64,000 bases of DNA from Escherichia coli. GTDB lineage: Bacteria; Pseudomonadota; Gammaproteobacteria; Enterobacterales; Enterobacteriaceae. The stretch lies in NCBI RefSeq assembly GCF_011045215.1, contig NZ_CP049201.1; one strand, written 5' to 3'. Of this stretch, positions 16,605 through 57,032 are shown in pieces (positions within the stretch are counted from its first letter, which is position 1; the number at the start of each line of letters is the position of its first letter). Below the pieces are notes generated by a model that did no database searches, had not been told where the DNA came from, and saw nothing but the letters and a program-made list of their open reading frames with translations. The position numbers and the translations under genes are program-made.

Positions 16605-18178
16605 TAAGGTTTCACCGGTTTAATCTGTTCGAACGGAATTTCGGTGGCGATCGGCGCGTAGGGGATGTTACCCAGCTCCGGTTTTGATACCACCATCATT
16701 GAGATGTAACTGATAGGCAGATAAACCGCCTCGTCATGCAGACGGGTCAGAATGTCGCGATACAGTGCCTGACGTTGTGCTTCGTCATGGGTCGCCAGCA
16801 CTTCGCCGATCTCTTTATCAATCAGCGGCTTGTCGGCTAATCCTTGCTGTGCCTGGAAGTCAGCGTGCGACGGTACGCGCATTGAACTCAGGAAGGCGTG
16901 TGGATCGTATGGCGCGCCCCAGGTGCGGTGGAAAATCATGCCAAAACGACCGTCGCGCTGACGAGCATAGATACTGCTCTCTTCTTCGCCAATCAGCGAG
17001 ACATCTGCGCCAATCTGGCGCATATCAGCCTGAATGATTTCCGCCATCGATTTGCTTAACGCATCGGTGCCGATGAACGACAGTTCAATGCGCAGCGGCT
17101 GACCATTTTTCTCGCGGATGTCTTTGCCCGCAGGCAGCGTCCAACCGGCTTTTTCCAGCAACGCTTTCGCTTTCTGCGGATCGTACTGGCGCGGTTTCAG
17201 GCCGAGATTAGCGTAAGGCACAGAAGGGGCAAACAGGGTGTCGGCGACCTGCTGGGTGCCATATAACGCGTTATCAATCAGCGATTTTTTGTTTACCGCG
17301 TAATTAAGAGCTTCACGTACTGCCAGCTCGTTGGTGGGGGCTTTGGCGGTATTGAGCGCCAGCATCACGGTTTCGATCGGCTGTGACAGTTGGGTGTGGT
17401 AAGCCGGATTCTGGCTAAAGCGGGCGAAGGTATCGAGCGGTAATAACCCTTCGTTTCCGTACAGCAGGTCGATATCGCCAGTTTCAAACGCTACCGCGCG
17501 GGTCGTCGGGTCCGGGATGACGTTAAAAGTGATCTTCTTAATCGCCGGCTTTTCGCCCCAGTAGTTTTCGTTACGGACGAAGACATCGTACTGATTCAGT
17601 TTCGATTCCTGCAAAACCCACGGCCCGGTGCCAATCGGCGCTTTAATCCCGTTCATGGTTTCATGGTTTTTAAACTGCGAGGGGGCGATAAAGCGGAAAG
17701 GGCGCGGCAGGGCCAGTTCTTGCAGGAAAGGATAGTAGGCGCTTTTCAGGGTGATTTGCAGCTCTGTTTTACTGAGTGCTTTGACATCAACAATCTGGTT
17801 TGCCAGCTCCAGCCAGGCGTGACGTTGACGGTTATCGAGCACTGCGCGGAAGTTTTCTGCCGCCGCCTCTGCATCAAACGGTTCGCCGTTAGAGAATTTC
17901 ACGTCATCACGCAGGGTGAAGGTCCAGGTTTTACCATCTTCTGAATGAGTCCAGCTTTTTGCCAGCCACGGGATCACCGAACCATCAGCCTGATATTTCA
18001 CCAGCGGTTCATAAACCATGCTCTGGGCGAACATCTGGTTAGGCGTGTAAAGGTGCGGGTTTAGTGGCCCGACATTCACCGGCCAGGCGGTGGTGATTTC
18101 ATCTGGTGCAGCGGCATGGACGATAAAAGACGCACAAGCCAGCAGCGCAAATAGAGTGCGGCGGAGTGTGGAGAGCAT
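16604..18178 (-). CDS. nikA: Periplasmic nickel-binding protein
   Basis: 524-aa ORF with signal peptide and family 5 solute-binding fold. Confidence 0.9.
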
Positions 18179-47544: not shown

Positions 47545-48648
47545 ATGAACATAAAGGGTAAAGCGTTACTGGCAGGATGTATCGCGCTGGCATTCAGCAA
47601 TATGGCTCTGGCAGAAGATATTAAAGTCGCGGTCGTGGGCGCAATGTCCGGTCCGGTTGCGCAGTACGGTGACCAGGAGTTTACCGGCGCAGAGCAGGCG
47701 GTTGCGGATATCAACGCTAAAGGCGGCATTAAAGGCAACAAACTGCAAATAGTAAAATATGACGATGCCTGTGACCCGAAACAGGCGGTTGCGGTGGCGA
47801 ACAAAGTCGTTAACGACGGCATTAAATATGTGATTGGTCACCTCTGTTCTTCATCAACGCAGCCTGCGTCTGACATCTACGAAGACGAAGGCATTTTAAT
47901 GATCACCCCAGCGGCAACCGCGCCGGAGCTGACCGCCCGTGGCTATCAGCTGATCCTGCGCACCACCGGCCTGGACTCCGACCAGGGGCCGACGGCGGCG
48001 AAATATATTCTTGAGAAAGTGAAACCGCAGCGTATTGCTATCGTTCACGACAAACAGCAATACGGCGAAGGTCTGGCGCGAGCGGTGCAGGACGGCCTGA
48101 AGAAAGGCAATGCTAACGTGGTGTTCTTTGATGGTATCACCGCCGGGGAAAAAGATTTCTCAACGCTGGTGGCGCGTCTGAAAAAAGAGAATATCGACTT
48201 CGTTTACTACGGCGGTTATCACCCGGAAATGGGGCAAATCCTGCGTCAGGCACGCGCGGCAGGGTTGAAAACTCAGTTTATGGGGCCGGAAGGCGTGGCT
48301 AACGTCTCGCTGTCTAACATTGCGGGCGAATCAGCGGAAGGGCTGCTGGTGACCAAGCCGAAGAACTACGATCAGGTTCCGGCGAACAAACCCATTGTTG
48401 ACGCCATCAAAGCGAAAAAACAGGACCCAAGCGGCGCATTCGTCTGGACCACCTACGCCGCGCTGCAATCTTTGCAGGCGGGCCTGAATCAGTCTGACGA
48501 TCCGGCTGAAATCGCCAAATACCTGAAAGCGAACTCCGTGGATACCGTAATGGGACCGCTGACGTGGGATGAGAAAGGTGATCTGAAAGGCTTTGAGTTC
48601 GGTGTGTTTGACTGGCACGCCAACGGCACAGCGACCGATGCGAAGTAA
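47545..48648 (+). CDS. livJ: Periplasmic Leu/Ile/Val-binding protein
   Basis: 367-aa product starting [23 protein letters not shown] (signal peptide); close paralog of the livK product in this window. Confidence 0.9.
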
Positions 48649-48705
48649 TCATTAATCGGCAACTTTGGGTTGCCGCCAAATTGCTAATATCGAGTACGTT
48701 GCTTC

Positions 48706-48807
<102 letters not shown>

Positions 48808-48847
48808 ATTTCTCGTTGGTCATCACTTTTGAAATCAAACTTGACGA

Positions 48848-49231
48848 TTAACGCTTTTCCCAGCCGCCCTGTTGTGCCGTAAATCCCAGTGCCTGCATAA
48901 ACGCCGTCATCACACCGCGATCTTCCACGCCTGCATCCGCCATCCACCAGGATGAAACGCTGGGATTATCACGCAAAACCTCTTCCAGTAGATATTGCCC
49001 CACGCCGCGACGTCGGGTGACTTCCCGCACGCGCAGGGAATCCAGTGTTCCCCCAATGCCGCTCAAGGTTACGCGTACAGCCGCAAGCAGGCGCTCGTTA
49101 AAACGCGCGGCGTAGATGCGGTGGTTATCGTCAACCTGTAAAGAGGAAGGGGAATACTCCGGCCAGATCTTTTGCAGGTCAATCCGGTCCTGGTCGCTAA
49201 AGTTTTCTAATCGAATGATGGTCAGCTTCAT
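48848..49231 (-). CDS. panM: PanD maturation factor (GNAT-like)
   Basis: 127-aa ORF starting MKLTIIRLENFSDQD; conserved position between livJ and livK. Confidence 0.88.
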   Translation of the reverse strand: MKLTIIRLENFSDQDRIDLQKIWPEYSPSSLQVDDNHRIYAARFNERLLAAVRVTLSGIGGTLDSLRVREVTRRRGVGQYLLEEVLRDNPSVSSWWMADAGVEDRGVMTAFMQALGFTAQQGGWEKR

Positions 49232-53012: not shown

Positions 53013-53776
53013 GTCAGCCATTATTATCTGTTAACGGCCTGATGATGCGCTTCGGCGGCCTGCTGGCGGTGAACAACGTCAATCTTGAACTGTACCCGCA
53101 GGAGATCGTCTCGTTAATCGGCCCTAACGGTGCCGGAAAAACCACGGTCTTCAACTGCCTGACCGGTTTCTACAAACCCACCGGCGGCACCATTTTACTG
53201 CGCGATCAGCATCTGGAAGGTTTGCCGGGGCAGCAAATCGCCCGCATGGGCGTGGTGCGTACCTTCCAGCATGTGCGTCTGTTCCGTGAAATGACGGTAA
53301 TTGAAAACCTGCTGGTGGCGCAGCATCAGCAACTGAAAACCGGGCTGTTCTCAGGCCTGTTGAAAACGCCGTCTTTCCGTCGCGCCCAAAGTGAAGCGCT
53401 CGACCGCGCCGCCACCTGGCTTGAGCGCATTGGTTTGCTGGAACACGCCAACCGTCAGGCGAGTAACCTGGCCTACGGTGACCAGCGCCGTCTGGAGATC
53501 GCCCGCTGCATGGTGACGCAGCCGGAGATTTTAATGCTCGACGAACCTGCGGCAGGTCTTAACCCGAAAGAAACGAAAGAGCTGGATGAGCTGATTGCCG
53601 AACTGCGCAATCATCACAACACCACTATCTTGTTGATTGAACACGATATGAAGCTGGTGATGGGAATTTCGGACCGAATTTACGTGGTCAATCAGGGGAC
53701 GCCGCTGGCAAACGGTACGCCGGAGCAAATCCGTAATAACCCGGACGTGATCCGTGCCTATTTAGGTGAGGCATAA
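53009..53776 (+). CDS. livG: Branched-chain amino-acid ABC ATPase
   Basis: 255 aa; Walker A (GPNGAGKTT). Confidence 0.9.
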
Positions 53777-53777
53777 G

Positions 53778-54491
53778 ATGGAAAAAGTCATGTTGTCCTT
53801 TGACAAAGTCAGCGCCCACTACGGCAAAATCCAGGCGCTGCATGAGGTGAGCCTGCATATCAATCAGGGCGAGATTGTCACGCTGATTGGCGCGAACGGG
53901 GCGGGGAAAACCACCTTGCTCGGCACGTTATGCGGCGATCCGCGCGCCACCAGCGGGCGAATTGTGTTTGATGATAAAGACATTACCGACTGGCAGACGG
54001 CGAAAATCATGCGCGAAGCGGTAGCGATTGTCCCGGAAGGGCGTCGTGTCTTCTCGCGGATGACGGTGGAAGAGAACCTGGCGATGGGCGGCTTTTTTGC
54101 CGAACGTGATCAGTTTCAGGAGCGCATAAAGTGGGTGTATGAGCTGTTTCCACGTCTTCATGAGCGTCGTGTTCAGCGGGCGGGCACCATGTCCGGCGGT
54201 GAACAGCAGATGCTGGCGATTGGTCGTGCGCTGATGAGCAACCCGCGTTTGTTGTTGCTTGATGAGCCATCGCTCGGTCTTGCGCCGATTATCATCCAGC
54301 AAATTTTCGACACCATCGAGCAGCTGCGCGAGCAGGGGATGACTATCTTCCTCGTCGAGCAGAACGCCAACCAGGCGCTGAAGCTCGCTGATCGCGGCTA
54401 CGTGCTGGAAAACGGTCATGTGGTGCTCTCCGATACTGGTGATGCGCTACTGGCGAATGAAGCGGTGAGAAGTGCGTATTTAGGCGGGTAA
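53778..54491 (+). CDS. livF: Branched-chain amino-acid ABC ATPase
   Basis: 237-aa product starting MEKVMLSF; Walker A (GANGAGKTT), signature (MSGGEQQM). Confidence 0.9.
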   Translation: MEKVMLSFDKVSAHYGKIQALHEVSLHINQGEIVTLIGANGAGKTTLLGTLCGDPRATSGRIVFDDKDITDWQTAKIMREAVAIVPEGRRVFSRMTVEENLAMGGFFAERDQFQERIKWVYELFPRLHERRVQRAGTMSGGEQQMLAIGRALMSNPRLLLLDEPSLGLAPIIIQQIFDTIEQLREQGMTIFLVEQNANQALKLADRGYVLENGHVVLSDTGDALLANEAVRSAYLGG

Positions 54492-54500
54492 ATTATCAAT

Positions 54501-54535
54501 AACCCGGCAGCTAAGTTCTGCCGGGTTATTCGTCC
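54501..54535 (+). terminator. Hairpin after livF (candidate terminator)
   Basis: 8-bp stem CCCGGCAG / CTGCCGGG with 7-nt loop, followed by TTATT. Confidence 0.5.
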
Positions 54536-54609
54536 GTATACAGACTTGTTTCAACTGACCGGGAGGATTAAAACCAGACCACTTATTTGCCACGGAAAGG
54601 TTCCCTCCC

Positions 54610-55356
54610 ATGCATTATGCCGTTGTCGCCATGCTTGAAATGCTTTGCTGTATCCACGCTTACCGTACCGGACAAGAGCGATATTGGTTTTTTATCATCT
54701 TCTGTTTTCCGGTGATTGGTTGCGTGGCGTATTTTGTCATGGTGATGCTGCCAGAAACGGGCGCTGACCGTCACGGGCGTACCTTTCTGATGCGCCTGCA
54801 GGACAAACTCAACCCTGAGCGCCACCTGCGCAAATTAACCGAAGAACTGGCGATTGCCGAGACGAATCAAAACCATTATGCGTTGGCTAATGAACTGGCG
54901 CGTCTGGGGCGTTATCACGAAGCTGTTCCCCATTATCAGCAGGCGTTAAGCGGGATATTCGCCCATGAAGCGGCAATGATGCTAAGCCTGGCGCAGGCAC
55001 AGTTTGCTATTCAGGAGTTCGCCGCCTGTCAGCAGACGCTGGAAGATGTGATGCGTTATAACCCTGATTTTCATTCGGCAGACGGGCATTTGTTATTTGC
55101 CAGAACGTTAGCCGCACAAGAAAAATACGCTGATGCGGAAAGCGAGTTTGAAGTATTGATTTCTTATTACCCCGGCCCGCAGGCGCGTATTTACTATGCG
55201 GAAATGTTGGCGAAAATGAGTCGGTTACGTGAAGCCAACGAGCAGTATGTTGCCGTAGTTGATACGGCTAAACGCTCAAGACCTCATTATAGAAAACACC
55301 ACCGGGAATGGATTAAGACCGCCAATGAACGGCTGAAGCAGAGTGTGGTGCAATGA
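54610..55356 (+). CDS. Hypothetical membrane-anchored TPR-like protein
   Basis: 248-aa ORF with E. coli-like codon usage; hydrophobic N-terminal ~45 aa (two likely TM helices) then helical repeat-like sequence rich in Ala/Leu/Tyr/Gln; hairpins with T-runs follow at 55366-55400 and 55486-55519. Confidence 0.6.
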   Translation: MHYAVVAMLEMLCCIHAYRTGQERYWFFIIFCFPVIGCVAYFVMVMLPETGADRHGRTFLMRLQDKLNPERHLRKLTEELAIAETNQNHYALANELARLGRYHEAVPHYQQALSGIFAHEAAMMLSLAQAQFAIQEFAACQQTLEDVMRYNPDFHSADGHLLFARTLAAQEKYADAESEFEVLISYYPGPQARIYYAEMLAKMSRLREANEQYVAVVDTAKRSRPHYRKHHREWIKTANERLKQSVVQ

Positions 55357-55365
55357 AAATCTTCT

Positions 55366-55400
55366 TTGCCGTTAGACCAGTGTCGCGGCAATCTTTTGTT
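55366..55400 (+). terminator. Hairpin plus T-run immediately after the TPR-like ORF
   Basis: TTGCCG / CGGCAA stem with 14-nt loop, followed by TCTTTTGTT. Confidence 0.4.
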
Positions 55401-55485
55401 AAAATTGAAAAATGTAGCTCTCATCGGGCAGCAAAACTGGACGCAGAATTTGCTGCCATTTTTGCTCTTCATGGTAAGGAGTTCT

Positions 55486-55519
55486 GGCGATTAGCTGGCC
55501 GTTAATCGCCTCTTTTCAG
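55486..55519 (+). terminator. Second hairpin plus T-run upstream of the ugpB promoter
   Basis: 8-bp stem GGCGATTA / TAATCGCC with 9-nt loop, followed by TCTTTTC. Confidence 0.45.
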
Positions 55520-55568
55520 TGCATTCTCGGGATATCCGTGCCCCATCTCCCATTTTCCCTCACCCACG

Positions 55569-55598
55569 CCGTCACCGCCTTGTCATCTTTCTGACACC
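55569..55598 (+). promoter_or_regulatory. Pho box array (PhoB binding) in the ugpB promoter
   Basis: Three 7-mers at 11-bp phase (ccgtcac, ttgtcat, ctgacac) approximating CTGTCAT direct repeats, about 120-150 bp upstream of ugpB. Confidence 0.5.
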
Positions 55599-55715
55599 TT
55601 ACTATCTTACAAATGTAACAAAAAAGTTATTTTTCTGTAATTCGAGCATGTCATGTTACCCCGCGAGCATAAAACGCGTGAATTCGCGCATTCGGTACAA
55701 CAAGAGAGATAAACG

Positions 55716-57032
55716 ATGAAACCGTTACATTATACAGCTTCAGCACTGGCGCTCGGACTGGCGTTAATGGGGAATGCACAGGCAGTGACGACCATTCCGT
55801 TCTGGCATTCTATGGAAGGGGAACTGGGTAAAGAGGTGGATTCTCTGGCCCAACGTTTTAACGCCGAAAACCCGGATTACAAAATTGTACCGACCTATAA
55901 AGGCAACTACGAACAGAATTTAAGCGCGGGGATTGCCGCATTTCGTACCGGCAACGCGCCGGCTATTTTGCAGGTTTATGAAGTTGGCACCGCCACCATG
56001 ATGGCGTCTAAGGCCATTAAACCGGTATATGACGTGTTTAAAGAGGCGGGGATTCAATTCGATGAGTCGCAGTTTGTGCCGACGGTTTCCGGTTACTACT
56101 CCGACAGCAAAACGGGCCACTTACTCTCCCAGCCATTCAACAGCTCGACCCCCGTTCTCTATTACAACAAAGACGCCTTCAAGAAAGCAGGATTAGACCC
56201 GGAACAGCCGCCGAAAACCTGGCAGGATCTGGCGGACTATTCTGCAAAACTGAAAGCCTCCGGTATGAAGTGCGGCTACGCCAGCGGCTGGCAGGGCTGG
56301 ATCCAACTGGAAAACTTTAGCGCCTGGAACGGTCTGCCGTTTGCCAGCAAAAACAACGGCTTTGACGGCACGGATGCGGTGCTGGAGTTCAACAAGCCGG
56401 AGCAGGTGAAACACATCGCCATGCTCGAAGAGATGAACAAGAAGGGCGATTTCAGCTACGTCGGGCGTAAGGATGAATCCACCGAGAAGTTCTATAACGG
56501 TGATTGCGCGATGACCACCGCCTCTTCCGGTTCTCTCGCTAATATTCGTGAGTACGCCAAATTTAACTATGGCGTAGGCATGATGCCTTACGACGCCGAT
56601 GCGAAAGATGCACCGCAAAACGCCATTATCGGCGGGGCCAGCCTGTGGGTGATGCAGGGCAAAGATAAAGAAACGTATACCGGCGTGGCGAAGTTCCTCG
56701 ACTTCCTCGCGAAGCCAGAAAACGCTGCCGAGTGGCATCAGAAAACCGGTTATCTGCCAATCACCAAAGCAGCGTATGACCTGACCCGTGAGCAGGGCTT
56801 TTATGAGAAAAACCCAGGGGCGGATACCGCGACGCGTCAGATGCTGAATAAGCCGCCGTTGCCGTTCACCAAAGGGCTGCGTCTGGGCAACATGCCGCAG
56901 ATCCGCGTGATTGTGGATGAAGAGCTGGAGAGCGTGTGGACCGGTAAGAAGACACCACAGCAGGCACTGGATACCGCCGTTGAGCGTGGAAATCAGTTGC
57001 TGCGCCGCTTTGAGAAATCGACGAAGTCTTAA
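55716..57032 (+). CDS. ugpB: Periplasmic sn-glycerol-3-phosphate-binding protein
   Basis: 438-aa ORF with signal peptide ([23 protein letters not shown]). Confidence 0.92.

Follow-up and report, generated by a model that had tools for sequence, protein, structure and literature searches.

Results

The livF-ugpB interval holds a single long reading frame

This study analyzed a 64,000-nucleotide stretch of Escherichia coli DNA (contig NZ_CP049201.1), hereafter called the window, and focused on the interval between livF and ugpB, whose features are compiled in Table 1. The interval is 1224 bp long and contains a single long open reading frame (ORF). The original prediction had placed a 248-aa ORF in a gap of approximately 1.2 kb at this position, and the coordinates and content of the ORF and the size of the gap all proved correct. 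The same gap measures 398 bp in TOP10, a K-12 derivative, where no gene is annotated. The prediction that the ORF is missing from K-12 was likewise borne out: the TOP10 spacer lacks the gene, K-12-type genomes do not carry it either, and no identical ORF is annotated in K-12. The GC content (0.50-0.52) is host-like. A trivial ambiguity concerns the start codon of livF, which is GTG at 53766 (241 aa) in the mechanical ORF list and ATG at 53778 (237 aa) in RefSeq.

Table 1. Features of the livF-ugpB interval and its flanks, in window coordinates.
Feature	Coordinates	Strand	Remarks
livF (left flank)	53778..54491	+	K-12 homology breaks off exactly at the TAA stop codon
Replaceable cassette, TPR haplotype	54492..55532	.	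From alignment and blastn junctions and population counts
Hairpin directly 3' of livF	54498..54530	+	13-bp GC-rich stem, followed only by UUAUUCGU
ORF	54610..55356	+	ATG start, 248 aa, stop codon within coordinates; TPR protein with a very probable PLDc_N-type hairpin
N-terminal hairpin, codons 1-51	54610..54762	+	Hydrophobic helices 2-20 and 23-51, kink at P34; conserved H16, W26, P34xxG37, Y41
TPR region, codons 71-248	54820..55353	+	About 4 TPR-like helix pairs and a C-terminal capping helix
First hairpin past the ORF stop codon	55366..55400	+	Stem-loop 55366-55391, then UCUUUUGUU; dG -11.4 kcal/mol, z -1.74
Phd/YefM antitoxin remnant	55398..55505	+	C-terminal 35 residues, within a 50-aa ORF (55353..55505)
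Second hairpin past the ORF	55486..55517	+	Stem-loop 55486-55510, 10-bp stem, then UCUUUUC; terminator-like
Conserved region upstream of ugpB	55533..55715	+	Right junction of the cassette
ugpB (right flank)	55716..57032	+	

The spacer behaves as a replaceable cassette

Homology of the window to both K-12 and E. coli strain D10 ended right after the livF stop codon and returned at position 55533 (TATCCGTGCCCC...), 183 bp 5' of ugpB; from 55533 to 55800, the window is 100% identical to K-12 TOP10. To describe how the spacer varies, we counted three states of it (TPR gene, phd-doc pair, and K-12-type filler) in 5426 complete E. coli genomes. The results revealed that 659 genomes (12%) carry the TPR gene between livF and ugpB, always on the chromosome, as expected of the strain-specific accessory gene that had been suggested. 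The 248-aa ORF is intact in 658 of these 659 genomes, and all O157:H7 records among the matches listed have the TPR cassette. A phd-doc pair, the state seen in strain D10, occupies the spacer in 107 genomes (2%), and the full-length K-12-type filler of 215 bp is present in 4630 (85%). Pieces of this filler are repeated, with a median of 11 copies per genome, and the filler is therefore considered to contain REP-type repeats. Approximately 30 of the 5426 genomes fall outside the three counted states.

A rare form, found in at least some E. coli strains, combines the TPR gene with an SMI1/KNR4 gene. The latter is intact in E. coli JNE151685 (227 aa; locus 4385..5068). In Escherichia sp. MOD1-EC7003 (locus 5768..6435), the matches are split between two overlapping frames (residues 1-203 and 200-223), a pattern suggesting that the copy 3' of the TPR gene in this strain is frameshifted. 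The fullest arrangement was observed in Citrobacter freundii, in which the order is livF-TPR-orf93-orf135-phd-doc-ugpB. The two additional ORFs between the TPR gene and phd-doc encode 93 aa with a signal-peptide-like N-terminus (locus 6850..7131) and 135 aa (locus 7272..7679); neither has a Pfam match on record or a match in NCBIfam or PADLOC.

A separate difference lies nearby in O157:H7 Sakai, in which an acetyltransferase and antitoxin pair (ECs_4307/ECs_4308; locus 16978..17778) is located between panM and livJ. The corresponding interval of the window (48648..48848) has only approximately 200 bp between ORFs and, judged by this spacing, seems to lack the Sakai-type insertion.

Hairpins and transcription signals around the ORF

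The hairpin directly 3' of livF has a predicted folding energy of -21.7 kcal/mol (z -5.15), and none of 200 shuffled sequences was equally stable. The U-tract that follows it is poor. This element is probably the terminator of the liv operon, as judged from its sequence, and is possibly leaky. Its arms vary by haplotype: the window has AAUAACCCGGCAG/CUGCCGGGUUAUU, and both K-12 and D10 have GGAGTC...GACTCC followed by a T-run. Because the hairpin differs between haplotypes, the probable terminator of the liv operon belongs to the swapped cassette as well. The hairpin shared by K-12 and D10 also raises the idea that the K-12 filler may have descended from the phd-doc haplotype.

Two hairpin/T-run structures had been noted 3' of the ORF, and both were found there. 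They are only modestly more stable than shuffled sequences (z -1.7 and -1.9). A scan of positions 54492-54610 for consensus sigma-70 sites found none, and an Rfam scan of 54400-55800 at E ≤ 1 returned no matches, indicating that the spacer contains no known RNA element. The proposal that the ORF is a stand-alone gene was thus upheld in part: the two 3' hairpin/T-run structures are in keeping with it, but the stretch from the livF hairpin to the ATG yielded no promoter-like site. Since the consensus scan gave no such site, read-through from the liv operon is a possible alternative source of transcription.

A decayed phd gene lies 3' of the ORF

The 35 residues encoded by the antitoxin remnant are 40-46% identical to the C-terminus of the Phd antitoxins located in the same spacer of E. 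coli D10 and C. freundii, and the DNA from 55431 to 55474 is 84% identical to the D10 phd gene. The recognizable part corresponds to residues 39-73 of a complete protein of approximately 73 aa, and the N-terminal dimerisation/DNA-binding domain is missing. No doc gene was found downstream of the remnant in the window. We rejected the reading of this stretch as a complete Phd/YefM antitoxin on account of the missing N-terminal domain and the lack of an adjacent toxin. By sequence comparison, the stretch 3' of the TPR gene is a decayed piece of phd without its doc partner.

Annotation, distribution, and evolution of the gene

RefSeq (PGAP) names the gene product "tetratricopeptide repeat protein". 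The closest allele, WP_137567197.1 from strain OkiPb01695, is identical at 247 of 248 residues. The counterpart in O157:H7 Sakai is ECs_4300 (NP_312327.1, "hypothetical protein") and that in EC4115 is WP_000558842.1; the O157 allele shares 97.6% DNA identity with the window gene. Because livF of EDL933 is Z4824, the counterpart in that strain is presumably Z4823. The RefSeq tetratricopeptide repeat protein of O157:H7 and other strains is the same gene at the same locus, has no assigned function, and differs from the window gene only as an allele. A text search of a literature library for ECs4300/Z4823 found nothing on the TPR gene.

The window DNA is approximately 98% identical to E. coli genomes, 97% to Escherichia sp. 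E1V33, and 94% to E. whittamii, which places it in E. coli in the strict sense. The livF-TPR synteny was also found in Escherichia sp. E1V33, MOD1-EC7003, E. whittamii, E. albertii, Citrobacter sp. NCU1, a Pseudocitrobacter metagenome-assembled genome, and C. freundii. In the E. albertii type strain NBRC 107761 (locus 5001..5743), the TPR gene has a frameshift at codon 185/186, and this copy is probably a pseudogene. Pairwise dN/dS values among Escherichia alleles range from 0.08 to 0.17, and the E. coli carriers include alleles that are up to 7% apart in DNA. The synteny across Escherichia and Citrobacter, together with these low ratios, indicates an old gene under purifying selection that is absent from most E. 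coli. The data fit a history in which the TPR gene would have resided next to livF before the Escherichia/Citrobacter split, been kept by purifying selection, and been replaced in most E. coli. Any role of the gene is dispensable, since most E. coli lack it and the copy in the E. albertii type strain is frameshifted.

We also considered whether the gene is cargo of a mobile element. A search of phage sequences with the TPR protein returned no matches, and the plasmid collection yielded only megaplasmid and chromid matches at 31-32% identity. Cargo of a mobile element was rejected on the basis of these results.

The protein belongs to a widespread TPR family

The helical, repeat-like character that had been noted in the protein was supported by both profile and structure. 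Pfam matches in the query comprised TPR_19 (E 2.1e-6), TPR_2 (1.3e-4), and TPR_1 (1.4e-4), spanning residues 89-227, and TPR_19 was matched at E ≤ 1e-3 in 22 of 24 relatives. The AlphaFold2 model, for which a family alignment served as input, is all-helical (pLDDT 87) and comprises 15 helices: helix 2-20, helix 23-51 broken at residue 33, two linker helices, approximately 4 TPR pairs (86-222), and a capping helix. When the model was compared with the PDB by using Foldseek, MamA, the TPR domain of OGT, and consensus TPR proteins were matched with a probability of 1.0. The profiles and the predicted superhelix of helix pairs establish that the protein belongs in the TPR superfamily. Sequence and fold searches of the PDB returned generic TPR proteins only (LbcA/PA4667, consensus TPR, OGT, and MamA) and no specific, functionally known relative.

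An exhaustive sequence search yielded 813 clusters (50% identity) at E < 1e-10, and nearly all of the 150 clusters listed contain proteins of 240-255 aa that align end to end. Foldseek matches in AFDB50 were likewise full-length (TM approximately 0.8), and none is characterised. Their hosts include Xenorhabdus, Pseudomonas, Xanthomonas, Gilliamella, Methylomagnum, and many more, and they are named either "Tetratricopeptide repeat protein" or "Cardiolipin synthase N-terminal domain-containing protein". The family is widespread in Proteobacteria and uncharacterised. Across 169 relatives, the positions that reach at least 85% conservation include H16, W26, P34, G37, Y41, and P48 of the hairpin and, within the TPR region, L161, A164, G189, and W234; in an alignment of 24 family sequences, SADGHLL(Y/F)AR and YYPGP are conspicuous motifs.

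The gene neighborhood was compared at 80 proteobacterial loci, and no neighboring family was common beyond single lineages. The gene lies between accA and tilS in Xanthomonadales, follows purQ in Bradyrhizobium, and adjoins pnuC and an opposite-strand FAD monooxygenase in Pseudomonas. The neighborhood offers no functional clue. By this measure, the gene behaves as a stand-alone unit, a view that is partly supported given the possible read-through from the liv operon.

We compared the protein with named TPR families. NCBIfam produced only sub-threshold, generic TPR matches (YbgF, PrsT, PorE, TOM70, and HemY), with none above a curated cut-off. The best of these was CpoB/YbgF, the periplasmic TPR protein of the Tol-Pal system (TIGR02795; TPR residues 87-157, E 2.3e-7); membership was rejected at 31.4 bits against a cut-off of 90.1, and in contrast to CpoB/YbgF, the ORF protein lacks a cleavable signal peptide, an N-terminal coiled coil, and a tol-pal neighborhood. 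HemY (TIGR00540) was also rejected (17 bits against a cut-off of 142). Neither the TPR protein nor the two Citrobacter ORFs nor the 50-aa ORF matched any PADLOC-DB model at E ≤ 0.1.

LapB (YciM) is a TPR adaptor that works in the cytoplasm, anchored to the inner membrane, and delivers LpxC to FtsH. It is longer (approximately 389 aa), begins with only one helix, has a larger number of TPRs, and ends in a rubredoxin-type zinc domain that bears paired CxxC motifs. One UniProt relative of the ORF protein carries the automatic name 'Lipopolysaccharide assembly protein B'. Membership of LapB was rejected: the ORF protein has 248 aa, its cysteines (C13, C14, C32, C38, and C140) form no CxxC motif, and it has no NCBIfam LapB match at E ≤ 1. 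The likeness to LapB that we propose is one of overall logic, in which an N-terminal membrane anchor precedes TPRs that would operate on the cytoplasmic side of the inner membrane.

The N-terminus resembles the hairpin of cardiolipin synthase

The N-terminus had been described as hydrophobic, and the 19-residue Kyte-Doolittle mean indeed peaks at 2.6 over residues 29-47, and residues 2-17 form another hydrophobic helix. A lipoprotein or signal-peptide reading was rejected, as there is no positive n-region and the cysteines of the MLCC start are not conserved in the family. The Pfam match of the query to PLDc_N (PF13396) is weak (E 0.0099, below the usual significance) and covers one helix only (residues 26-43). 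In 24 relatives, PLDc_N was matched at E ≤ 1e-3 in 5 and at E ≤ 0.1 in 13, with a best value of 3.1e-5. An hhalign comparison of the family with residues 1-80 of ClsA aligned W26..P34xxG37..Y41 with W40..P48xxG51..Y55 of ClsA (E 9e-5, probability 59%). These residues are conserved in 99% (W26), 93% (P34), 99% (G37), and 99% (Y41) of 169 relatives, and the W...PxxG...Y motif of helix 2 is present after a positively charged loop. Moreover, 'Cardiolipin synthase N-terminal domain-containing protein' is the UniProt name of several full-length structural matches.

On the basis of these comparisons, the protein very probably bears a PLDc_N-type hairpin. The features shared with ClsA are two hydrophobic helices, a short positive loop, W-x7-P-x2-G-x3-Y in helix 2, and a positive linker thereafter. 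The two proteins differ in that the ORF protein continues into a C-terminal TPR array rather than a phospholipase-D catalytic domain and has no HKD motifs; their sequences match over a short stretch, with modest significance. No phospholipase-D match outside the hairpin was found in Pfam or NCBIfam.

Charge distribution around the hairpin

To describe the likely topology, we averaged the number of lysine and arginine residues (K+R) over 169 relatives. The mean was 0.05 in the N-tail, 2.17 in the inter-helix loop (residues 17-25, approximately 8-9 residues), and 3.12 in the 15 residues after helix 2; the sum of the N-tail and C-flank exceeded the loop in 123 of the 169 relatives. One relative has RRRR immediately after helix 2. 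ClsA likewise has been described with positive charge flanking helix 2 at either end. In wild-type cells, an N-terminal hairpin of two transmembrane domains holds the catalytic domain of ClsA on the cytoplasmic side; for helix 2, which contains PxxG, the proposal is that it enters the membrane without spanning it (PMC11698083). [quoted passage not shown] The charge pattern of the TPR family is nevertheless ambiguous, because the loop has a charge of +2.2 of its own, from which a plain two-span model would predict a cytoplasmic loop and a periplasmic TPR domain.

Discussion

This study revealed that the ORF between livF and ugpB is a real accessory gene of the chromosome on which purifying selection acts. 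Its full-length presence in hundreds of genomes and its low dN/dS are far beyond what chance would produce. The gene was already known, being annotated in RefSeq without an assigned function and carried by approximately 1 in 8 E. coli, including O157:H7. Its presence in the window merely reflects the familiar differences between K-12 and other lineages, an ordinary explanation of little discovery value.

With moderate confidence, we propose that the TPR domain faces the cytoplasm, is tethered to the inner membrane, and serves as a docking surface for a partner protein, a reading that draws on the analogy with ClsA and on the charge statistics. The hairpin would fix the protein in the inner membrane, and the positive loop and the positive linker after the hairpin, as in ClsA, would keep the TPR domain of approximately 180 residues on the cytoplasmic face. 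The concave TPR surface, with SADGHLLYAR and YYPGP, could then bind a partner protein or peptide and hold it at the membrane, such that the protein would act as an adaptor or scaffold rather than as an enzyme. From these likenesses, we infer that the protein inserts into the membrane, that its TPR domain faces the cytoplasm, that it acts as a scaffold, and that a partner exists.

The same architecture could also place the TPR domain in the periplasm, if helix 1 were a reverse signal anchor, the positive loop were cytoplasmic, and helix 2 were a signal anchor that escapes cleavage; in that case, the protein would be a periplasmic envelope scaffold similar to YfgM, CpoB/YbgF, or NlpI. We regard this arrangement as less likely but still a serious alternative. 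The uncharged N-tail and the loop with approximately 2.2 K+R form the pattern expected of an N-out, loop-in protein, and the first residues after helix 2 (LPETGAD) are acidic or neutral, whereas the 15 residues after helix 2 carry more positive charge than the loop (3.1 K+R) and one relative has its four arginines right behind the helix. The periplasmic protein YbgF is the top NCBIfam match, but its 31 bits against a cut-off of 90 reflect generic TPR similarity. [quoted passage not shown]

Two other explanations concern whether the gene has a present function and whether its neighbors share that function. It is unlikely that the E. coli copy is a decaying relic that has no present function and is heading for loss, as in most lineages. 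Approximately 88% of complete E. coli genomes lack the gene, the E. albertii type strain has a frameshifted copy, a degraded phd fragment adjoins the gene in the window, and the promoter scan upstream of the ATG was empty; however, the dN/dS values, the frame kept in all but one of the carriers despite the divergence of their alleles, and the full-length preservation of the family throughout Proteobacteria argue against decay. We consider it highly improbable that the gene is part of a conflict or defence island and functionally tied to phd-doc or to the immunity-like SMI1/KNR4 genes. The spacer does house phd-doc in 107 E. coli genomes as well as in C. freundii, SMI1/KNR4 in certain E. coli strains, and, in the window, the remnant of a phd gene, but PADLOC gave no matches, phage matches are absent and plasmid matches distant, and the family elsewhere stands alone among housekeeping genes, as between accA and tilS in Xanthomonadales. 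Because phd-doc and the TPR gene each occur at the locus without the other, such a link is already weakly refuted.

For E. coli, these findings describe the livF-ugpB spacer as a multi-state hotspot with sharp junctions, which may serve as a lineage marker. For the family, a cytoplasm-facing tether is the reading that we favor, and by analogy with ClsA we also note a very unlikely extension of it, in which the PLDc_N hairpin would be a portable, lipid-responsive topological switch that exposes the TPR adaptor on either face of the inner membrane according to the state of the membrane. If this were true, the hairpin switch would be a modular device reused beyond lipid synthases. A family that combines a ClsA-type hairpin with a TPR array may provide a simple test case for whether the hairpin alone can dictate or switch orientation.
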